NCBI GenBank assembly: GCA_018814245.1
Contig: JAHIZN010000215.1
Location: 1-36,554 of the forward strand
DNA: 36,554 nt
Reading direction: 5' to 3'
Source: a bacterium
GTDB lineage: Bacteria; UBA9089; CG2-30-40-21
The notes beneath the pieces are model-generated. The model had not been told where the DNA came from. It ran no database searches and was given only the letters and a program-made list of their open reading frames with translations. Made by a program: the position numbers and the translations under genes. Below, in pieces: positions 989-25,553 of the stretch. The first letter of the stretch is position 1, and each line of letters opens with the position of its first letter.

Positions 989-3328
989 TTAAAACGATGG
1001 TCCTATTCCAAAATGAATCTTGCTTTCACCCTTTACCTGCCCTATGGCATCATTTAATCTCCATGCATAATCCATGCGGATGGGACCTATGGGGCTATTA
1101 ATTCTTATCCCCAAGCCTGCCCCAAATTTTAGCTCAGAAAAGTCAATATCAGAAGCTTTTTCCCATACATTACCGCAGTCAGCAAACAAGACCCCATAAA
1201 GCTGCTTGGGTGCGATTGGAAAACGATATTCAAGATTTCCTACGAAAACCGACTCACCTCCTTCTTGTTTTCCATTTGCATCTTGAGGGCAAATACTTCT
1301 TTCTCCATAACCACGAACAGAATAATGTCCACCCACTCTGAACTTTTCATAATCAGGCGATGCGTTATTACCATTTAATTTGGTGATAATTCCAAATCGA
1401 CTGTGAACAGCCAGAACAAACTTGCACCAGCTTGGAATATAATAGGTTGCATCTATTGTTGGCTTATAATATTCAACATCTCCACCCAGCATGCCACCAA
1501 CCAGATCCTGTGAGATATCCCAAAAACAGCCTGATTCGGGATTGAATATATCATCACCCATCTTGGTATTTCTCACAAACCTTAAGTTTAAGCATGATGT
1601 TTTGACATATTTTTCACTCCACTTTTCCTTCCACTCACGGATAGAATCAGAAATATTAGCTGACATATTCCTCATAGAAACCTCTTCGTATTTATACTTG
1701 CAGCTCAAGGCGTTATGTTTTGATGTATCACGGCTGGTCCTTATTGCTCCACCCCTTCTTTGACTGGTATAATCAGTATATTTATCACTGCTGTTCCATG
1801 AATCAATACCAATCAATGTCTTTGGCTTCCTGTCCCTGAACCATGGATTTGTAAACCCAAACTCATAGTTGGTAATATTTTGTCCCAGTTCACCCTTGAT
1901 GTTCATGGCATACCCCTTGCCTTTGAGGTTATTTAAGGCACATTCAATTGAGCCATAACCCCCTGGTTGGGAGCCATAACCCGCAGAAAAAAGAAATGTA
2001 CCTGTTTTTCCTTCTTTAACGACTATATCCAAAACCTTTTTACCATTCTCTGTTCCTGGCTTGATATCAAAATTTACCTCCTCAAAATACCCAAGGTTGA
2101 TAAGTTTCTGCCTGCTCAATCTGACATTCTGTCCATCAAATAAAGAGCCGTCTTTAACCAAAAGCTCGCGGCGGATAACATTGTCTTTAGTCTTTGTGTT
2201 GCCGGTAATAAGGATTTTTTCTATATATGACTGGGACCCTTCAGATATCTTAAAGGTAATGAGTACTGTTTTTGCATCTACATCTACATCCTCTTCCATG
2301 ATAACCTGAGATGAGATATATCCTTTTTCAGCATACAGATTATTAATCATCTGCATATCCTGACTGATGCTGATAACATTATACAGGATATTTTCTCCGG
2401 TCTTCATCTTCGTTCTTATTTCAGTCTCAGGGATGAGCTTATTACCGGTAATCTCTATTCCTGTTATCTTGAATTGGCTGCCTTCAGAGATATTAATGGT
2501 AATTGTTATCCCTTTTTTGTCACCCTTTTCAGTAACATAGGCAATATCCTGAGAAACGATGTCTGCCTGTAAATACCCCTTTGATTTATAATAATAAGTA
2601 AGCCGCTGCATATCAATATCCAGCTCTGCCTTGTTATAACTCCCACCCTTGGTTGTCTTTATCTGTCTCTTCAGAGTTTTTGCAGGTATGGTGTTATTCA
2701 AAAAGGCTATCTTTTTTACCTTGACCAATTGTTTGGAATCAAGATGGAAGATAACATCCACGCCTGTTAGATTTTTTATCTGCGAGTCAGCATCTTTATT
2801 GGATGCTGTCTTTTTTTTATCCGCTGCCTGTGTTGAGCTTGTTGAAGAGGCTTGCTTTATCTCACTTGTTACCTCAGCAAAACAGTACCCCTTTTCCTGA
2901 CAATATTCCAATATCTTCTGGGTAGATTCTTTAACTTGATAAGGCTGGCAGGGAGCATTTTCCTTCACGGTTATCAGCTTTTTCAGCTCCTCATGGCTTG
3001 GCTCTTTGCTGCCGACAATATTTACAGAAACAACCTTTTGCCTCTCCTTAACTGAAAAGATGAGGGTGGTCTTGCCATCTGCTGCCTTAGTAGAGGCAGA
3101 CACATTCTCAAAATAGCCAAGTTTATAGATAGCACGAATGTCTGCATCTACCTTTTTTGCATCAAAACTATCACCTATCTTGACACTTACCGCACGAAGA
3201 ACCACCACTTCGTGTACTGTTTCGTTGCCAATAATGGTTACTGCGGTGATAACACCTGCTGCCTCTTTTTGTGCGTAGAGATTGGTGGTAACGAAAAGAA
3301 ATCCAATAGCAATTAGTATTCTTGACAC
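989..3328 (-). CDS. bamA: Outer membrane protein assembly factor BamA (Omp85 family)
   Basis: 779 aa with a signal peptide, repeated POTRA-like modules, and a C-terminal beta-barrel ending in an aromatic residue (...HFGIGPSF). GTG start with GGAGGG SD. Confidence 0.9.
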   Translation of the reverse strand: MSRILIAIGFLFVTTNLYAQKEAAGVITAVTIIGNETVHEVVVLRAVSVKIGDSFDAKKVDADIRAIYKLGYFENVSASTKAADGKTTLIFSVKERQKVVSVNIVGSKEPSHEELKKLITVKENAPCQPYQVKESTQKILEYCQEKGYCFAEVTSEIKQASSTSSTQAADKKKTASNKDADSQIKNLTGVDVIFHLDSKQLVKVKKIAFLNNTIPAKTLKRQIKTTKGGSYNKAELDIDMQRLTYYYKSKGYLQADIVSQDIAYVTEKGDKKGITITINISEGSQFKITGIEITGNKLIPETEIRTKMKTGENILYNVISISQDMQMINNLYAEKGYISSQVIMEEDVDVDAKTVLITFKISEGSQSYIEKILITGNTKTKDNVIRRELLVKDGSLFDGQNVRLSRQKLINLGYFEEVNFDIKPGTENGKKVLDIVVKEGKTGTFLFSAGYGSQPGGYGSIECALNNLKGKGYAMNIKGELGQNITNYEFGFTNPWFRDRKPKTLIGIDSWNSSDKYTDYTSQRRGGAIRTSRDTSKHNALSCKYKYEEVSMRNMSANISDSIREWKEKWSEKYVKTSCLNLRFVRNTKMGDDIFNPESGCFWDISQDLVGGMLGGDVEYYKPTIDATYYIPSWCKFVLAVHSRFGIITKLNGNNASPDYEKFRVGGHYSVRGYGERSICPQDANGKQEGGESVFVGNLEYRFPIAPKQLYGVLFADCGNVWEKASDIDFSELKFGAGLGIRINSPIGPIRMDYAWRLNDAIGQVKGESKIHFGIGPSF

Positions 3329-3350
3329 AATTTCCCTCCATAATATTATT

Positions 3351-3413
3351 CGTAAGCGTTCAGTGATCAGCGATTTTATGGTTTGAGCTTTCTGCTGATA
3401 GCTGAACGCTTAC
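3351..3413. repeat. Palindromic MITE-like repeat, family C (termini CGTAAGCGTTCAG...CTGAACGCTTAC), short copy
   Basis: Terminal inverted repeats gtaagcgttcag / ctgaacgcttac. The internal attttatggt motif is the reverse complement of accataaaat in the copy at 4616-4761. The repeat ends 2 nt from the PIN gene stop codon. Confidence 0.85.
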
Positions 3414-3415
3414 AT

Positions 3416-3829
3416 TTATCTTAACCAACAAAATGGTATCTTCCCTTCTCTTTCAATGCTTTCTAATTCATGATGATCCGTGGATATTACTGTAGCAAAC
3501 CTTTGTTCTGCCAATGCCAGGACAAAGCAATCTGCATAAGAAACCCTAAAGGATGTTTTGTATTTACCTACTATCTCAATAAAAGGAATGTCCAATTCCC
3601 AAATTATGGTTATAGGAAGTTGTTGTATGTCATCCCAAATTTCTTGAGCCTCATTTTTATCTTTTCGTAATGTATCATAATACGCCTCTCCTACATTTAC
3701 TGCATGCATAAAAAATCTATTGTACTTATCACTAAAAAGTGTTTTAACCTTTTCACATCCTTCCTCCTGTCGAAGGTAAACAAGTAATCCACATGTATCC
3801 ATAACATAATTAACTATCTCTCTTGCCAT
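3416..3829 (-). CDS. PIN-domain ribonuclease (VapC-like toxin)
   Basis: 137 aa with acidic residues in the pattern expected for PIN: N-terminal VMDTCG, GEAYY, YADCF and C-terminal STDHH. SD GAGGAA. It overlaps the upstream gene by 16 nt. Confidence 0.8.
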   Translation of the reverse strand: MAREIVNYVMDTCGLLVYLRQEEGCEKVKTLFSDKYNRFFMHAVNVGEAYYDTLRKDKNEAQEIWDDIQQLPITIIWELDIPFIEIVGKYKTSFRVSYADCFVLALAEQRFATVISTDHHELESIEREGKIPFCWLR

Positions 3830-4119
3830 TTCTGTTCCTCTAACTCAATTTCAATCTGCTTTTGTCTGGCAAATTCTTCACTACTGCTAAGTCTGTCTTT
3901 GTATTTTCCACACAATGCATGAATTGCCTTTTCTTTGTAGTAATACTCAAAATCTTTTGACACATCTTCAAAGCAATTAATAGAAATGGCACAAATATCA
4001 ACATTATTTTGATCTACCCATAACCTAAACTGCCCTTTTCTCACAGGCTTTATTGGGATAATATCATAAATTTCTGCCTTTAGGCTGTTTTTTTCTGCAC
4101 TATATGAAATAGTACTCAT
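3814..4119 (-). CDS. Hypothetical 101-aa protein, possible antitoxin or adaptor for the PIN protein
   Basis: Strong SD GGGAGGG. Its ATG overlaps the TIR gene stop (ATGA). The C-terminal charged helix (SSSEEFARQKQIEIELEEQ) resembles the tails of VapB-type antitoxins. The N-terminal 60 aa are not recognisable. Confidence 0.6.
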   Translation of the reverse strand: MSTISYSAEKNSLKAEIYDIIPIKPVRKGQFRLWVDQNNVDICAISINCFEDVSKDFEYYYKEKAIHALCGKYKDRLSSSEEFARQKQIEIELEEQKWQER

Positions 4120-4595
4120 TTTCCCTCCCTCTGTGAAGAAAGTAAAAGGAAAAAAGCAAGGATTCCTCCTGCAACAAGTAAGGCTTTTTTCTGTTCTTGC
4201 TTCTTCAATTTTAACAATTTAACAAAGCCTGCTGTTTTAGATAATGCATCTTCATATTGATGAGGATCATATTCAATATATTCTTTGCCTTGTAATGCTG
4301 CCAAGTCGTTTATATTAACCCCTTTTTCTACAATTGGAATAAGTGTCCTGCCAGCCTTTAATGCACATTCTATTTCCTGATTGACCCAATTAGATCTTAC
4401 TCCATTTTGTGTTAATAAAGCAACAATACAGTCAGATTTTTCAATTTTCTCAAATACTTTTTTCCTGACAGGCTCTCCTGGAGTAAGATACCATTCTGCA
4501 ACAAATACCTTTATTTCAAATTTTGTAAGTATGTGAGCAAGTGCAATGACTAATCCCCGGTCTTGAGTACTATGACTTATAAACACACTATACAT
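4116..4595 (-). CDS. TIR-domain protein with a C-terminal transmembrane anchor
   Basis: The N-terminus SVFISHSTQD, the CIVALLTQNGVRSNWVNQEIECAL segment and GRTLIPIV match the bacterial TIR_2 pattern (FISYS ... S.WV..E), including the putative catalytic Glu. The C-terminus ALLVAGGILAFFLLLSS is a single TM helix. SD AGGAGG. Confidence 0.8.
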   Translation of the reverse strand: MYSVFISHSTQDRGLVIALAHILTKFEIKVFVAEWYLTPGEPVRKKVFEKIEKSDCIVALLTQNGVRSNWVNQEIECALKAGRTLIPIVEKGVNINDLAALQGKEYIEYDPHQYEDALSKTAGFVKLLKLKKQEQKKALLVAGGILAFFLLLSSQREGK

Positions 4596-4615
4596 TACCT
4601 ATTACCTCCTTGTTT

Positions 4616-4761
4616 CGTAAGCGTTCAGCCGTCAGCTATCAGTAGTCAGCAAAGACCATAAAATCAAGAGGGAAAAGTCTCCCTGACCATTATACCTTCC
4701 TGCTTTTTGTGGCTAATGCCTTGTAAGAGCTGAAGGCTGATCACTGATAGCTGAACGCTTA
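4616..4761. repeat. Palindromic MITE-like repeat, family C, long copy
   Basis: Starts cgtaagcgttcagcc and ends gctgaacgcttat. The internal segment is inverted relative to the copy at 3351-3413. The right end supplies the TAA stop of the GT28 gene. Confidence 0.85.
4689..4716 (-). promoter_or_regulatory. Candidate sigma70-type promoter for the TIR operon, inside the family C repeat
   Basis: On the minus strand the sequence reads TTAGCC-N16-TATAAT. The -10 is perfect and the -35 is weak (3 of 6). It lies about 95 nt upstream of the TIR gene ATG. Confidence 0.3.
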
Positions 4762-5910
4762 TCTTGTTTCCATCACCAATCTGGCAATATTCTCCGTACA
4801 ATTCGGCTTTCCCAGCCTTCCTGCCGCCTCTTTCATAGAATAACGACTTGCTTCATCAGCCAAAAGCTCGCAAACAGCCTGTGGAATATCCTTTGTACGC
4901 TTTGGATATACAGCTGCCCCGGCATTAACCAATACCCTGACATTCCATTCCTCTTGTCCCTTTATGGCTTGCATCAGGCAAAGAGGCACTCTTTTTGCTA
5001 ATGCCTCTGACACAGACATGCCGCCTGGTTTAGTAATTATCACATCTGACATGGACATAAACTCTTCCATATTATTCACAAAGCCAAATACCTTGACTCG
5101 ATAATTAAAATCCTTAGTAATTGCCTCTGCCTTTTCCCTTAATTTTTCATCCCTGCCAATAATTATTGCCAGTTGAAAATTTCCCTTGATATTCTTGAAT
5201 GCCTCCAATAAATTAAACACTGGTCCTATCCCAAACCCGCCGGAAAGTATCAGAACAATCGGCATATCCTTGTCAAACCCAAGGGATTCCTTTGCTGCGG
5301 TCATCTCTATGGGAATAGAAAACCTGGGGCTGACAGGAATACCCTCAACCGCTATCCTTTCAGAGGAAATACCCTGACTCTCAAGATACTTAGCCATCTC
5401 TTCGCATGGAACCACAAAGGCATCTACCTGCCTGTTTACCCCAAATAAGTGCACATGAAAGTCTGTAGCCACAGAAATAAGGGGGATATTTAATCTCTTT
5501 TTACCACTTCCTGTGAGACAAGGATGAGGTGAGCGTTCAGTCTGTTTTTTCAAAACCCCTACTGCAGCAGCAAGAAATGGATGGGTGGAAACGATTACAT
5601 CTGGTTGAAATTCTCTGATATTTTGTGCAACCAAGGCTGCATATCTTTTGGTAATATACCACCGTATCGGAGAATACACACCTGAAATCAGGCGGCTATT
5701 ATAAAAATATCCCCAAATATACGGCATGTGCCTTGCCATAAAGACATAGAAATTATTTATAAATCGTTGTTTTTTGGGCTCTTTTTCAAGAGGATCTTTC
5801 AGCCAGACAATAGATTCTGGCGAAACCTGCCGTATTCCCTCACAAATAGCCTCAGCTGCACGAACATGTCCCATGCCGGCCAATACGGTTAAGACAAGAA
5901 TCTTTTTCAA
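4759..5910 (-). CDS. GT28-family glycosyltransferase (MGDG synthase / UgtP-like diacylglycerol glycosyltransferase)
   Basis: N-terminal GMGHVRAA motif and C-terminal ITKPGGMSVSEALA motif, as in MGDG-synthase/MurG-like GT-B enzymes. 383 aa. Confidence 0.75.
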   Translation of the reverse strand: MKKILVLTVLAGMGHVRAAEAICEGIRQVSPESIVWLKDPLEKEPKKQRFINNFYVFMARHMPYIWGYFYNSRLISGVYSPIRWYITKRYAALVAQNIREFQPDVIVSTHPFLAAAVGVLKKQTERSPHPCLTGSGKKRLNIPLISVATDFHVHLFGVNRQVDAFVVPCEEMAKYLESQGISSERIAVEGIPVSPRFSIPIEMTAAKESLGFDKDMPIVLILSGGFGIGPVFNLLEAFKNIKGNFQLAIIIGRDEKLREKAEAITKDFNYRVKVFGFVNNMEEFMSMSDVIITKPGGMSVSEALAKRVPLCLMQAIKGQEEWNVRVLVNAGAAVYPKRTKDIPQAVCELLADEASRYSMKEAAGRLGKPNCTENIARLVMETR

Positions 5911-6050: not shown

Positions 6051-6098
6051 TTGCCATGTTGTAGAGACGCAAAATTTTGCGTCTCTACAACATGGCAA
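6051..6098. repeat. Perfect 48-bp palindrome, family B core GTAGAGACGCAAAATTTTGCGTCTCTAC
   Basis: ttgccatgttgtagagacgcaaaa / ttttgcgtctctacaacatggcaa are perfectly complementary 24-nt arms. Other family B copies are at 9041-9068, 15982-16017 and 25526-25553. Confidence 0.95.
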
Positions 6099-6695: not shown

Positions 6696-8317
6696 AGCCT
6701 TATTGGCTTTTTAATCCCTTCAGGAATGCTTAACCCAAGAATCTTATATATCCCTTCCAGATACCCTCTGAACAGGGAATCAAAAATATCTGCGTTTGGG
6801 GAATAGTGTTTATCCCCATACCACCAGAACCAATCCGATCCTTCAGCAATATAAATATATTCCCATGCAGTCTTAGTTTTGTCTGATTGACCATGTTCTT
6901 TTTCAAAGTCTACCAGAGCCTCTCTTGCCTCGTATAGATGATCCCATGCCCTGTTTTCTTCCTTGCCGCCTATCCAAATTTGGAAGTTAGAATTTATCCA
7001 TGAGCCTGGATGAATCTCTGTAAGTGTTTCTTGCGGGGGATTTTCCTTAAGATATTCACTTACAGTAACACATCTTATTTTTTCATCATGAGAGAGACAG
7101 GTATAGAGATATTCTAAAAATTCCCAGCCATTTTTTGAATAGTATTCCCACGCATTTTCCCCATCCATGGCAATACACACAAGATTGTTTCTTTTTTTGG
7201 GCAGCATGTCATGGATATGATGAAGTCTGGTGATAAAATCAGAAACCGCATCATAGGTATTCCATTTTCCGTAGGTAAAACCAATAGTATCAGAAAGTGC
7301 TCTATCCCGAAAGACTACACTTACTTGTTTTCCGTCTATGTTGAGATTATACGGCTTATACAGCAGATGGGCACTATACCTGTCCACACCAAGTGTGTGA
7401 TACAGAATCCATTCATCTGTTGCCAGCCATTTAATACCATTATCCGCCACCATAGGAATAATATCGTTGCAAACACTCCCTTCTGATGGCCACATCCCTC
7501 TGGGGTTGCAGCCAAAGTAATGTTGGTAGCAATCTACTGCCGACTTTATCTGCATTCTTGCATCCTCAGGGGCAGAAAATCTTTTTGTTGGCAAGGTAAC
7601 ATTCGGGTCTGACTGTCGGGCTAATTCTGTATTGCATAATAATGGAAGTATGGGGTGATAGTATGGGGTTACTGAAACCTCAATCTGTCCGGTATCTTGC
7701 ATCCTTTTATATTTAGGCAGTATCCATGAGATAACCTCTCTTTGTTTATCTATAAGTTTTTGTTTTTCTTCTTCAGTAAAATTCTTTTGTTTTTTGATAA
7801 GGTTTGCTAAGAATGAATCTCTTCCTTGAAATTGCGGATCAAACCATGCAATATTAAACCAGACCTGAAGGTCAAGAAAATCCTGAGTACTAAACCTTTT
7901 AACAGCCGTAAGCAGTTCATCTCTTGAAACAGTTATACCTCTTTTTTCTATAAGCTCTCTGTATCGAGGGAAGACCTTGATCATATTATCCCAGTTTGCA
8001 GAAAAAAATTCTTGCAGCAGAAAGGTCTTTTGTCCATGACTTAAGTCTTTAGCCGGGATCATGGTATACGCCAAATACCTGTCACTTGCACCTTTCGCAT
8101 ACTCATCCAATTGAATCATCAGGGATGGAACCATGTTAAATGTTTGATGGATTGATGGATATGCATCTAAGGCAGAGATCATATCATAGTAATCTTTAAT
8201 CCCATGCAGCCTTACCCATGGAAGAGAGTATTCTGAGGTAGAAATATCCTTGTAAAATGGTTGATGCATGTGCCACAAGAAGGCAACATGTAATGGGTTA
8301 CTCATAGATTTTTCCAC
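6692..8317 (-). CDS. Glycoside hydrolase family 57 (alpha-amylase / branching-enzyme type)
   Basis: N-terminal WHMHQPFYKD signature of GH57. 541 aa. Confidence 0.8.
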   Translation of the reverse strand: MEKSMSNPLHVAFLWHMHQPFYKDISTSEYSLPWVRLHGIKDYYDMISALDAYPSIHQTFNMVPSLMIQLDEYAKGASDRYLAYTMIPAKDLSHGQKTFLLQEFFSANWDNMIKVFPRYRELIEKRGITVSRDELLTAVKRFSTQDFLDLQVWFNIAWFDPQFQGRDSFLANLIKKQKNFTEEEKQKLIDKQREVISWILPKYKRMQDTGQIEVSVTPYYHPILPLLCNTELARQSDPNVTLPTKRFSAPEDARMQIKSAVDCYQHYFGCNPRGMWPSEGSVCNDIIPMVADNGIKWLATDEWILYHTLGVDRYSAHLLYKPYNLNIDGKQVSVVFRDRALSDTIGFTYGKWNTYDAVSDFITRLHHIHDMLPKKRNNLVCIAMDGENAWEYYSKNGWEFLEYLYTCLSHDEKIRCVTVSEYLKENPPQETLTEIHPGSWINSNFQIWIGGKEENRAWDHLYEAREALVDFEKEHGQSDKTKTAWEYIYIAEGSDWFWWYGDKHYSPNADIFDSLFRGYLEGIYKILGLSIPEGIKKPIRL

Positions 8318-8987: not shown

Positions 8988-9144
8988 GTAATTACTCAAT
9001 AACCTATGGATTTTGTAAGTCATGAAGACTACCCTTATAAGTAGAGACGCAATATTTTGCGTCTCTACTCCCACAATTGCAACGAGTTAGATTGCCTCAG
9101 CACCTTCAACCTTCTGGAATTGCCACAGGATATTGAGCAATTAC
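8988..9144. repeat. Composite nested repeat: family G shell (GTAATTRCTCAATAWCCTRTGG) enclosing a family B hairpin
   Basis: Left end gtaattactcaataacctatgg and right end ccacaggatattgagcaattac are inverted. The interior shares about 130 bp with 6011-6140, including the gtagagacgcaa..ttgcgtctctac hairpin and caattgcaacgaRttagattgc. Confidence 0.85.
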
Positions 9145-9324: not shown

Positions 9325-9996
9325 TCAAATATCTTCATGTTTTTCCCAATACCTTTTTACTTCCTCAAAATGCTTGATTCTACCAGCAATCTTTTCAATC
9401 TCTTTTGGATAAAATTCAGCAAGTATAGCACAGAGTCGAAGCATCCATGACTTTCTGGTTTGTTTGTCATTGATTGATATTCTGTTAGAATTGGCGATTT
9501 GAATTTGCCCCCAACCCAATGCGCCAATTGTCAGACATTGCCAATCAAGATGTTCTATTGGAACAAAATGACAAGATTTTGCCTTGAGTTTTTCTTTTTC
9601 AATTTTGTATGCAACAATCAGAAGTATAAAGTAATTACTATCATCTTCATAGAACCTTGTGAGTCGCTCAACAGATGTTAGGTTTGGCATATTGAATGCT
9701 GTATCAAGATTGTGTGTCTTATTATCAACCACATAATAAAAACCATCGTTATCTGTAAATGCGAAATCCGCCATAGATCGACGAGCAAATGACGAATTGT
9801 ATTCTTTAAGAATTTCTTTGGGAAGAAGTTCATTAAATTTTGATTCGAGCAATTGCTGAATAGCATCACCAACAGCACGAGGACTATTAATGGTTCTGGC
9901 ACTCATCAAACTATGTTCTTCATTGATAAGTGTCAAAACATTTCTTTCTATATCTGACTGAATATGCCCAGAGAATAATTTACTTCTATTTGTCAT
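9325..9996 (-). CDS. Putative type II restriction endonuclease (PD-(D/E)XK-like)
   Basis: It overlaps the stop of the upstream DNA methyltransferase by 11 nt. It contains a candidate catalytic motif MADFAF...YVVDNK (D...D-x-K). No closer family assignment is possible by eye. Confidence 0.6.
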   Translation of the reverse strand: MTNRSKLFSGHIQSDIERNVLTLINEEHSLMSARTINSPRAVGDAIQQLLESKFNELLPKEILKEYNSSFARRSMADFAFTDNDGFYYVVDNKTHNLDTAFNMPNLTSVERLTRFYEDDSNYFILLIVAYKIEKEKLKAKSCHFVPIEHLDWQCLTIGALGWGQIQIANSNRISINDKQTRKSWMLRLCAILAEFYPKEIEKIAGRIKHFEEVKRYWEKHEDI

Positions 9997-10993
9997 TTGC
10001 TACCTCAAAAAGTGAAAAAAGGTTTAGGGGCTGTATGTTCTTACTTAATCTTTTTTTCCCATTCTGATAATTCAGTGAATTCCTTTCCCAAAACACACCA
10101 TCAGAATAACCCTGTATGGATTTGTCACAGTCAGCCCCATCAAGTCGGTTTTGTGCCCAACAACAATATTCTGTGTTGACTTCAACACCACAATAATGGC
10201 GATTAAGTTTTTTAGCAACAACCGAAGTAGTACCAGAACCTAAAAACGGATCAAACACAGTCCCTTTTTCAGGACAACTAGCCAAGATTAATTTGGCAAT
10301 TAGTTTTTCGGGTTTTTGCGTAGGGTGGTCTGTGTTTTCAGGCATAGACCAATATGGTATAGTAATATCATCCCAAAAGTTAGATGGGTGTGTTAATCTA
10401 AAATTACCTTCTTCCGTTTCTTCCCAGTCTTTTGGCTCTCCATTTTCTTTGTATGGAGCAATTACCTTTCGTTTCATTTTGACTGCTTCTACATCAAAAA
10501 AGTAATTATTACTAATTGTGCCAAACCAAATGTCTTCAGTGCAGTTTTTCCAGTTTGACTTTGCACCACGCCCTTTTTCTCTTTGCCAAATAATTCTGTT
10601 TTGGACAACAAGATACTTGCTTACAATACGATATAGTGCGGATGTACTTCTCCAATCACCGCAAATATATACTGACCCTGTTGGTTTCAAGAGTCGCATC
10701 AATTCAGGAAACCAGCTATCGAGGTATTTGAAATAACTGTCATCATCGATTTTATTAAACTTAAAACCGTTAAACTCTTTGTCAAGATTATATGGTGGGT
10801 CAATTACCATTAAGTCAACAAAGTTTGACGGGAAATATTTAATTATCTCAAATAAATTATCATTAAAAGTTTTATCTATAACTTCATTAATAGACAATAC
10901 ATTTGTAGCATGTGACAAATATTTTGAAAGAAGAACTGCTTCATTCTTTGTTATAGTAATCGTACGATTTCTTGGTGCTCTTTCTTTTTCCAT
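9986..10993 (-). CDS. Beta-class DNA methyltransferase (N6-adenine or N4-cytosine)
   Basis: Motif IV VIDPPYN precedes motif I FDPFLGSGTTSVVA, which is the beta-class permutation. Confidence 0.85.
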   Translation of the reverse strand: MEKERAPRNRTITITKNEAVLLSKYLSHATNVLSINEVIDKTFNDNLFEIIKYFPSNFVDLMVIDPPYNLDKEFNGFKFNKIDDDSYFKYLDSWFPELMRLLKPTGSVYICGDWRSTSALYRIVSKYLVVQNRIIWQREKGRGAKSNWKNCTEDIWFGTISNNYFFDVEAVKMKRKVIAPYKENGEPKDWEETEEGNFRLTHPSNFWDDITIPYWSMPENTDHPTQKPEKLIAKLILASCPEKGTVFDPFLGSGTTSVVAKKLNRHYCGVEVNTEYCCWAQNRLDGADCDKSIQGYSDGVFWERNSLNYQNGKKRLSKNIQPLNLFSLFEVANDK

Positions 10994-15720: not shown

Positions 15721-15869
15721 CTTAAGAAGCTATCAGCTTTCAGCCACCAGAGACAGAAAAATCAAGGCTGCCATTCCTGATAAAAGGCTGACAGACACCT
15801 TTAAGCTGATAGCTGAATACTTACCATTAAGTATATCACAGCTTTCAATAATTGACAACTAAAATTTAT

Positions 15870-16090
15870 CGACCTGTGCAATTAGAAACAGGGAATATAT
15901 CCGCAGATTTCGCAGATTATCGCAGATTAAAAAAATTGCAAAACAAATTCAACGGCTACGGTACATGGTGAAATCGTAGAGGCATGTAGAGACGCAAAAA
16001 TTTGCGTCTCTACATGCTTTCCCCCCTCATCTCATCTGTAATCTGTGAAATCTGCGTAATCTGCGGATTAAATCCTAATTGCACAGCTCG
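15870..16090. repeat. 221-bp concentric nested palindrome: family I shell > family D (GCAGATT repeats) > family B hairpin
   Basis: The outer arms are cgacctgtgcaattag and ctaattgcacagctcg. Inside them are gcagatttcgcagattatcgcagatt and aatctgtgaaatctgcgtaatctgc. The centre is gcatgtagagacgcaaaaatttgcgtctctacatgc. AAATTTAT is present on both outer flanks. Confidence 0.9.
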
Positions 16091-16183
16091 AAATTTATTG
16101 TAAACAGTCATGCCTCAGCAATGGCAGCCGCAGGCTTAATCCTGGCGCAAAATACTGATTACTGTTCACTGAACGCTTACATA

Positions 16184-22342: not shown

Positions 22343-22435
22343 TGGCGGAGAGGGAGAGATTCGAACTCTCGGTAAGGTTTTAAGCCCTACAACTGCTTAG
22401 CAGGCAGCCCCGATCGGCCACTCCGGCACCTCTCC
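22343..22435 (-). tRNA. tRNA-Ser (anticodon GCT)
   Basis: The reverse complement reads GGAGAGG...CTGCTAA anticodon loop...long variable arm...GAGAGTTCGAATCTCTC-CCTCTCC-G-CCA. Confidence 0.9.
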
Positions 22436-22840
22436 GTGTTTAATACTAAGTAATCGTTCAGCTGTCAGTGGAAAGCCCAAGACTATAAAATCAAGAGACA
22501 GAGGGCAAGCACGGGGCATTGCCCCTACGCCTTTCTGTGCCAGGGGTGCGATTACCTCTGCCATGGGTGGATATACCCTCTTTTATGCCGTAATGCCTAT
22601 CCCCCGATAGCGACTTATCCTTACCCACAAGTCCAACCACCATTAATTCAGCAATTCAACAATTGACAATTACTGAATTGCTGAATTGTTGAATTGTTAA
22701 TCATTTTGTGGTACATGCTTCTGTTGTTTTGCAGCATTTCCCATCAGAATTCCATCCCCCAAAGATGTGAGTAAGGATAAGCGTTGGCAAGGGATTAGGG
22801 GGTGGTGCTAAAGGCTGACTGCTTAAAAAGTAAACTCTTA

Positions 22841-25525: not shown

Positions 25526-25553
25526 GTAGAGACGCAAGATATTGTGTCTCTAC
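25526..25553. repeat. Family B hairpin copy
   Basis: gtagagacgcaagatattgtgtctctac, with one G-U-type mismatch relative to the other copies. Confidence 0.85.

Follow-up and report, generated by a model that had tools for sequence, protein, structure and literature searches.

A module of three small, overlapping genes (~1.2 kb) is described here from the minus strand of a 36,554-nucleotide (nt) stretch of bacterial DNA, hereafter the window (contig JAHIZN010000215.1 of GenBank assembly GCA_018814245.1; GTDB lineage UBA9089, CG2-30-40-21), where it lies between a lipid glycosyltransferase (GT) gene and bamA. The first gene encodes a TIR-domain protein with a C-terminal hydrophobic helix, and the third a VapC-like PIN-domain protein. 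On sequence grounds, the second gene encodes a chimeric, two-part antitoxin, in which a beta-stranded N-terminal domain (N-domain) is followed by a PIN-specific tail. The same triad is found in more than 30 uncultured species from approximately 15-20 phyla, and it appears undescribed within the databases and literature searched. Every catalytic part of the module is familiar; the novelty lies in the adaptor domain and in how the three parts are wired together. The chances are judged about even that the module is a VapBC-type toxin-antitoxin (TA) pair coupled to a membrane TIR NADase through the middle protein, acting as a bifunctional adaptor.

Gene organisation of the module

The three genes and the features assigned to their products are the following (aa, amino acids; ORF, open reading frame):

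4116-4595, minus strand: gene 1, TIR protein with a C-terminal hydrophobic helix (159 aa; ORF and Pfam TIR_2)
4374-4376, minus strand: codon of Glu74, the putative catalytic glutamate of W70-x3-E74 (alignment and match to AbTIR)
4134-4184, minus strand: predicted C-terminal membrane anchor, residues 138-154 of gene 1, ALLVAGGILAFFLLLSS (conserved hydrophobic segment)
3814-4119, minus strand: gene 2, middle protein (101 aa; ORF)
3940-4119, minus strand: N-domain of gene 2, approximately residues 1-60, TIR-linked beta domain (AlphaFold2 model)
3814-3939, minus strand: C-terminal tail of gene 2, residues 61-101 (...GKYKDRLSSSEEFARQKQIEIELEEQKWQER) and stop codon, predicted to neutralise the PIN protein (tail/PIN pairing)
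3416-3829, minus strand: gene 3, VapC-like PIN-domain nuclease (137 aa; ORF and Pfam PIN)

The stop codon of the TIR gene and the start codon of the middle gene share the sequence ATGA (4116-4119), and the middle gene in turn overlaps the PIN gene by 16 nt (3814-3829). Shine-Dalgarno (SD)-like purine runs precede all three genes, namely AAGGAGG at 4605-4611 ahead of the TIR start, GGGAGGG before position 4119 and GAGGAA before position 3829. A preliminary description of this DNA had presented the genes as translationally coupled, each with its own SD sequence, and as wedged between bamA and a lipid GT gene; all of its sequence-level statements on coupling hold, and the flanking ORFs confirm the location.

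Distribution and inheritance of the triad

Loci were collected by scanning one genome per GTDB species, which gave 38 loci with this TIR subfamily, and triads were called within them by ORF extraction and hmmsearch. In these reference-genome loci, the middle protein is encoded directly downstream of the TIR protein in 35 of 36 assessable cases, compared with none of 17 loci carrying distant TIRs. The ATGA coupling is present in 30 of the 35 TIR-middle pairs, and a PIN gene comes next in 30 of 34 loci. The same order is seen in metagenomes, where TIR homologues at ~65% identity in unrelated organisms are followed by an ORF of 90-94 aa and then by a PIN protein of ~130 aa, and where all seven full-length matches to the middle protein have a TIR upstream and a PIN downstream. 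Thus, the three families co-occur well beyond the window, and the N-domain is linked to this TIR subfamily.

The hosts include Nitrospirota, Nitrospinota, Planctomycetota, WOR-3, Aerophobetes, Chloroflexota, Zixibacteria, Fraserbacteria, Thermotogae and Bipolaricaulia, among others. The closest TIR in the reference genomes, at 82% identity, comes from a metagenome-assembled genome (MAG) of Candidatus Desantisbacteria. The triad is also found on the complete 2.8-Mb chromosome of an Asgard archaeon (Atabeyarchaeia; CP147779.1, locus L057). At this archaeal locus, a second, longer TIR-domain ORF (6901-8052, minus strand; hmmsearch E 3e-13) lies ~700 nt downstream of the cassette. A further archaeal assignment, a 4.4-kb contig binned as Methanobacteriaceae (L032), is doubtful and probably reflects a binning error, since the same study yielded a bacterial MAG (L033) with identical cassette proteins. 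Exact-sequence look-ups of the window cassette returned contigs of the same species only.

Within the dominant type of the module, all four parts (TIR, N-domain, tail and PIN) co-diverge (Mantel r 0.40-0.70, p <= 0.0035), and the triad is therefore inherited as a unit. The TIR and the N-domain persist at loci where the PIN gene has decayed (L026/L039, L053 and L056). At L026/L039, a Fic protein was considered as an alternative third-gene effector and rejected, as the adaptor tail is truncated and the gene encoding the helix-turn-helix (HTH)-Fic protein lies 125 nt off, an arrangement that looks like replacement or decay. Another unusual protein, P0073 (L084, 3034-3615, seen in two samples), has the TIR fused in frame to an antitoxin tail, with the N-domain deleted. 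It was rejected as Rosetta-stone evidence for a TIR-PIN complex, since no PIN gene follows and the surroundings consist of radical-SAM genes, and it is better explained as a decayed remnant. As read from the alignment, the TIR of P0073 has Gly where nearly all members have Asp55.

The PIN protein and the tail of the middle protein

Gene 3 encodes a PIN-domain protein (Pfam PIN, 2.7e-12, 47.8 bits against a cut-off of 23.6 bits), and two PIN subtypes share the acidic residues D11, E48, D100 and D118 without exception, which substantiates the VapC-like identity proposed in the preliminary description. A phmmer search of the PIN protein against PDB sequences gave nothing useful. The combination of a PIN toxin carrying four conserved acidic residues with a small, overlapping upstream gene is that of type II VapBC systems, and the likeness extends to the tail of gene 2, which also occurs on antitoxins of canonical appearance whose partners are PIN proteins of the same subtypes. 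For example, the window-type tail GKYKDRLSSSEEFARQKQIEIELEEQKW occurs on proteins with unrelated N-termini (P0005-P0007), and in L086 it sits on a different N-domain before a PIN protein 63% identical to that of the window, with no TIR nearby. Likewise, the tail of the dominant type is found on a ribbon-helix-helix (RHH)-like N-domain in L096 and on another N-domain in L095, in both cases before a PIN protein of the dominant type and with no TIR present. These tails and PIN subtypes thus occur as stand-alone TA pairs, as expected from the earlier suggestion that genes 2 and 3 form a VapBC-like pair. Two further features were noted at L086, where the VapC of the window subtype is split by the insertion of a DDE transposase (3228-5277) and where the N-domain of the antitoxin looks DUF2281-like by eye.

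Gene 2 therefore resembles a VapBC antitoxin in lying adjacent to and upstream of the toxin gene and in having a toxin-specific C-terminal region, through which neutralisation is predicted. Yet, it departs from VapBC in two respects, as the N-terminal DNA-binding domain of the antitoxin is replaced by a beta domain that belongs to no family, and as the gene of a predicted membrane-anchored TIR is almost invariably attached upstream and translationally coupled. As judged from these comparisons, the assignment of the tail-PIN half to the VapBC-type pairs is well supported.

The tail and the PIN protein vary together. At least five tail types are found behind the same TIR and N-domain core, each with its own PIN subtype, and these PIN subtypes are only ~20-25% identical to one another, although all pass the Pfam PIN cut-off. 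Compared with L029, which occupies the same chromosomal site, the window module is 82% identical in the TIR and 56% in the N-domain, while identity falls to 21% in the tail and 20% in the PIN protein. Compared with L011, the corresponding values are 77% and 56% for the TIR and the N-domain, and 90% and 69% for the tail and the PIN protein. Tail and PIN are therefore exchanged as a cartridge, whereas the TIR and the N-domain stay together.

The N-domain of the middle protein

The AlphaFold2 model of gene 2 has a mean predicted local distance difference test score (pLDDT) of 79, with five strands in residues 1-48 at a pLDDT of ~88 and two less confident helices in the C-terminal part. A fold search of the model against the PDB gave no significant match (best E 0.3), and a profile search against PDB sequences returned noise only. 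The middle protein is assigned to no family in Pfam, PADLOC, NCBIfam or PHROGs, and no Pfam match to an RHH, AbrB, PhD/YefM or HTH DNA-binding domain was obtained in any of the 31 or 45 members scanned. In size and in N-terminal sequence pattern, gene 2 is similar to the small beta proteins of DUF2283 (Pfam PF10049), and weak hmmscan matches to this family were obtained in 2 of the 31 members (best E 1.4e-4) and in 1 of the 45 (E 0.074). However, most members, including the window protein, have no match to the DUF2283 profile, and homology is unproven.

An exhaustive profile search of 1.84 billion representatives recovered 94 relatives of the TIR-linked N-domain protein, mostly of ~93 aa. In several proteins (P0312, P0295, P0304, P0316 and P0331), the N-domain is joined to other C-terminal modules. 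The C-terminal region of P0312 looks HicB-like by eye, and no Pfam match was obtained for P0312, P0331 or P0295. Gene 2 had been credited in the preliminary description with only an antitoxin-like charged tail; while the tail stands, the "only" does not, as a conserved N-terminal beta domain partners the TIR.

The TIR protein

Gene 1 encodes a TIR-domain protein (Pfam TIR_2, 1e-20, 74.9 bits against a cut-off of 28 bits), for which a homology search recovered 383 relatives, nearly all with a length of ~158 aa and an identity of 62-83%. The NWVNQEIE motif retains W70 and E74 in all 30 homologues aligned, and in a comparison of the family profile with PDB sequences E74 aligns with the glutamate of WTNYE in the NAD+ hydrolase AbTIR. 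The best solved relatives by this profile are AbTIR and the CRISPR-associated Cat1. The AlphaFold2 model of the protein (pLDDT 88.5; predicted template modelling score 0.87) matches many TIR structures in Foldseek with a probability of 1.00, and the top matches are active TIRs, namely Cat1, RUN1, SARM1, AbTIR, SPARTA and SpbK. The TIR_2-type domain with the W-x3-E glutamate, reported in the preliminary description, is thus upheld by the Pfam match, the invariant residues and the AbTIR alignment. Based on its conserved glutamate, the protein is predicted to belong to the enzymatically active TIRs, whether as NADase or as cyclase. The mean pairwise identity of the TIR across phyla is 67%, which together with the invariance of W70 and E74 points to selection on TIR catalysis.

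A second conserved feature is found at the C-terminus. The mean Kyte-Doolittle score of the 19 residues from position 136 onwards is 1.70, the hydrophobic segment is preceded by the Lys-rich stretch KLLKLKKQEQKK, and only five residues come after it. The segment is kept across the family with the consensus LLIAGGILAFLLLLSG in the 30-homologue alignment, and residues 132-157 form one long helix in the AlphaFold2 model. The single C-terminal transmembrane helix claimed earlier is therefore backed by conservation and by the model, and anchoring of the TIR in the membrane by this helix is a reasonable prediction. Apart from the helix, the protein has no extra sensor domain of its own.

Proposed mechanism

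In the proposed mechanism, gene 3 would be a VapC-type PIN ribonuclease toxin, which the C-terminal helical tail of gene 2 would bind and silence in the manner of VapB tails. The beta domain of gene 2, standing in the place of a DNA-binding domain, would be dedicated to gene 1, which may be a catalytically competent, NAD+-cleaving TIR anchored at the inner membrane face. By binding the TIR directly, the beta domain would allow one short-lived adaptor to restrain two enzymes. If the adaptor were lost or displaced, for instance by proteolysis, by a block of host gene expression or by a membrane-linked trigger acting on the TIR, both the RNase and the NADase would be freed and growth would stop. 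The outcome could be either post-segregational or stress-induced arrest, or abortive infection.

Direct binding is favoured over a diffusible signal for several reasons. The N-domain comprises only ~50 residues, which is very small for a nucleotide sensor, and translation of the adaptor gene is coupled to that of the TIR gene, as is seen for stoichiometric complexes. In addition, the TIR and the N-domain persist where the PIN gene has decayed, and the TIR itself lacks a sensor domain.

Several points weigh against this reading. The contact between N-domain and TIR is a proposal only, and the co-divergence test cannot tell a link between TIR and N-domain from one between TIR and PIN. The N-domain also occurs once apart from a TIR, in L097 (352-1170 of a 1.3-kb contig), where the gene preceding that of an N-domain protein with another tail encodes a GNAT acetyltransferase; no other exception to the TIR linkage was found. 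P0073, with its intact-looking TIR and neither N-domain nor PIN, suggests that a neutraliser is not obligatory, unless this TIR is inactive. The core of the hydrophobic helix spans only 15-17 residues, so membrane insertion is to be read as a prediction. Finally, many TIRs of bacteria do not deplete NAD+ but produce signalling nucleotides, and the TIR of the module could likewise be a signal generator.

A tentative variant, possible though held with limited confidence, is an immune or stress module in which the anchored TIR gates the TA pair. Here, oligomerisation of the TIR at the membrane or a nucleotide product made by it would be read by the new ~50-residue adaptor domain, which would then release the interchangeable VapC RNase.

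Comparison with Thoeris and other TIR systems

The main rival to the adaptor model is a Thoeris-like system, in which the membrane TIR would sense infection and make a nucleotide of the cyclic ADP-ribose (cADPR) type, and the N-domain would bind this signal and release an interchangeable PIN effector. Like the ThsB TIR of Thoeris (types I-XI), the TIR of the module is a stand-alone protein with a glutamate in the catalytic position, encoded beside an interchangeable effector module, and it resembles signalling and NADase TIRs. Matches to ThsB-type models were also obtained, although they are weak. The search of PADLOC-DB 2.0 gave only partial matches of the TIR to ThsB, PDC-S66 and retron-TIR-type models, and none for the other two proteins; the ThsB matches have E values no better than 8e-10, and the Pfam ThsB_TIR match (28.3 bits) covers residues 41-91 only. 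The curated NCBIfam 20 models are far below their cut-offs, with 31 bits against 220 for ThcB4 (Thoeris) and 50 bits against 600 for the retron-TIR model.

Known signal sensors are larger than the N-domain, whose ~50 residues form a beta unit that neither shows a recognisable ligand-binding fold nor has a match in the PDB. The ATGA coupling suggests a stoichiometric complex, the TIR lacks an extra sensor domain, and the loci show no clear defence-island context. Unlike Thoeris, the module has a TA pair as its effector and a TIR that is apparently membrane-anchored, and it holds no known signal-binding domain. Among the cassette neighbours, no known Thoeris effector domain was found (SIR2-SLOG, Macro-TM, caspase-like and others), and neither the cassette nor its flanks encode a CD-NTase or PycC cyclase as in CBASS or Pycsar, in agreement with the earlier statement that a ThsA partner and a cyclase are absent. 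Effector swapping has been described for Thoeris types I-XI in a 2025 TIR survey listing 29 putative Thoeris types (10.64898/2025.12.03.692087), and the five tail/PIN modules on one TIR and N-domain core mirror it. Yet, PIN or antitoxin effectors are absent from the main text and from part of the tables of that survey. Taken together, a Thoeris-like mode of action is considered unlikely.

The adaptor model may also be set against other TIR proteins and other tripartite systems. The best sequence and fold matches of gene 1 are NAD+-degrading TIR effectors (AbTIR, SpbK, Cat1, the SPARTA TIR and retron-TIR), with which it shares the catalytic motif. While those TIRs are controlled by fused or partner sensors, such as CARF, Argonaute, reverse transcriptase or the binding of a phage protein, gene 1 is a bare TIR with a predicted anchor, paired with an antitoxin-like adaptor. 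In tripartite TA systems such as toxin-antitoxin-chaperone (TAC), a two-gene TA pair is joined by a co-transcribed third component, for whose action the antitoxin carries a dedicated extension. The present module differs from TAC, which was compared by description and not by sequence, in that its third component is an anchored TIR instead of a chaperone and in that the dedicated segment of the antitoxin is N-terminal.

The preliminary description had also held that no described system pairs a membrane-anchored TIR with a VapBC-like pair. This is borne out by PADLOC-DB 2.0, NCBIfam 20 and Pfam, in which the combination has no match, and by full-text literature searches for TIR together with PIN, VapBC, antitoxin or DUF2283, in which no description of the three-gene arrangement was found. 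Nor is the module covered in a domain-centric E. coli survey from 2026.

Genomic neighbourhood

The neighbourhood was sampled in 36 loci by taking the two ORFs closest to the cassette on either side, giving 130 proteins. The flanking genes are mostly housekeeping genes, including those for ETF proteins, an amino-acid permease, TGT, aminotransferases and envelope proteins. Defence-type proteins among the 130 comprise approximately three type IIG restriction-modification proteins, one DRT-like protein and one DpdE, which are raw counts without a background rate, and some loci adjoin TA or defence-type genes (HicA, MqsA-like, Mrr and Fic). In viral contigs, a plasmid collection and PHROGs, no cassette was found, only distant TIRs. 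An anti-phage or defence role of the module is thus unproven. In the window itself, the region 9325-10993, ~5 kb from the cassette, holds two overlapping ORFs, one for an N6/N4 DNA methyltransferase (335 aa) and one of unknown family (223 aa); this may be a restriction-modification or orphan methylase pair.

As read from the coordinates, the upstream gene points in the same direction as the cassette in 31 of 34 loci, and the distance between the two is often no more than ~120 nt. This fits an antitoxin that lacks a DNA-binding domain, although it proves nothing about regulation. The same observation is in keeping with an ordinary VapBC addiction module, in which the TIR would be a membrane tether, a regulator or a third component stabilising the antitoxin, with neither an enzymatic nor a defence role. 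The scattered, single-copy insertions beside housekeeping genes and the stable inheritance at one site in four related species speak for such a module, as does the antitoxin itself, which without a DNA-binding domain would need some other form of control. On the other hand, W70 and E74 never vary, and a catalytic glutamate would be dispensable in a pure scaffold, so that a plain addiction module is judged rather improbable.

Flanking repeats and mobility

The cassette is flanked by two palindromes and two genes:

989-3328: bamA, flanking the cassette downstream
3352-3413: palindromic element resembling a repetitive extragenic palindrome (REP), downstream of the cassette and not part of the module (20-nt arms, 90% complementary)
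4617-4762: REP-like long palindrome between the GT and TIR genes, not part of the module (33-nt arms)
4759-5910: MGDG-synthase/GT28-type GT gene, flanking the cassette upstream

The preliminary description had taken these palindromes as the borders of a mobile or inserted cassette. The repeats are real and form hairpins, with energies of -27.2 kcal/mol (z = -7.2) for the element at 3352-3413 and -59.7 kcal/mol (z = -6.0) for that at 4617-4762; neither these hairpins nor the cassette have a match in Rfam. As borders of the cassette, however, they do not stand. The repeat motif GTAAGCGTTCAG has seven matches in the window against 0.05 expected, and copies at 15721-16183 lie on both sides of a 460-nt intergenic region rich in short repeats, while another at 22436-22500 lies directly beside tRNA-Ser (22343-22435). 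A second, intergenic palindromic family (GTAGAGACGCAAA...TTTGCGTCTCTAC) also has seven matches, against 0.02 expected, for example at 6061-6088, 9041-9068, 15986-16013 and 25526-25538. By both families, the genome is rich in REP-like hairpins. Among the fetched loci, GTAAGCGTTCAG is confined to contigs of the same species, apart from one stray match in L030.

The interval between the GT gene and bamA was also compared in related genomes. In three related species (L011, L014 and L029), the cassette is present at the same site while the repeats are absent, with intergenic gaps of 0-95 nt, too short to hold them, and a GT gene that abuts or overlaps the TIR gene. In L029 (Desantisbacteria), the gene order is the same as in the window, namely TPR, GH57, GT, TIR, adaptor, PIN, BamA and OmpH. 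The repeats therefore arrived after the cassette, as later REP-like insertions, and the cassette itself is, from this shared position, taken to be old and fixed at the GT-bamA site in the lineage of the window.

It could still be argued that the flanking inverted palindromes delimit or move the cassette and that it was recently inserted between the GT gene and bamA. Repeats are indeed present at both ends, the GC content of the cassette (33-35%) is below that of its flanks (~40-45%), and the triad occurs in unrelated contexts in other phyla. However, this repeat family recurs between other genes of the window (~15.8-16.2 kb and 22.45 kb) alongside the second family, the motif is species-restricted, three relatives carry the cassette at the identical site without it, and the ORF list of the window has no transposase or integrase adjoining the cassette. 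Recent, repeat-driven insertion is thus highly improbable. Given the unrelated contexts across phyla, the cassette does move by some route. One such context is that of L025 (3388-8175), where the cassette sits amid a cluster of four ETF-domain genes and looks like an insertion into a metabolic operon.

Implications

TIR domains and type II TA pairs are both central to prokaryotic conflict biology, and no description of a system joining the two was found in the literature searched. The near-exclusive occurrence of the module in uncultured anaerobic lineages may explain why surveys of cultured bacteria or of defence islands would miss it. The module offers a compact test case of how an antitoxin may be rewired from DNA-binding autoregulation to control by, or of, a membrane NAD+-cleaving enzyme, and the single TIR and adaptor core with at least five tail/PIN cartridges provides a natural experiment in effector swapping. 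If TIR-gated TA proves true, it would link TIR signalling directly to type II TA in bacteria and in Asgard archaea. Should the TIR be the trigger, the module would represent a new route for activating TA toxins, and should it instead be a second toxin, the module would represent a design with two toxins and one antitoxin.

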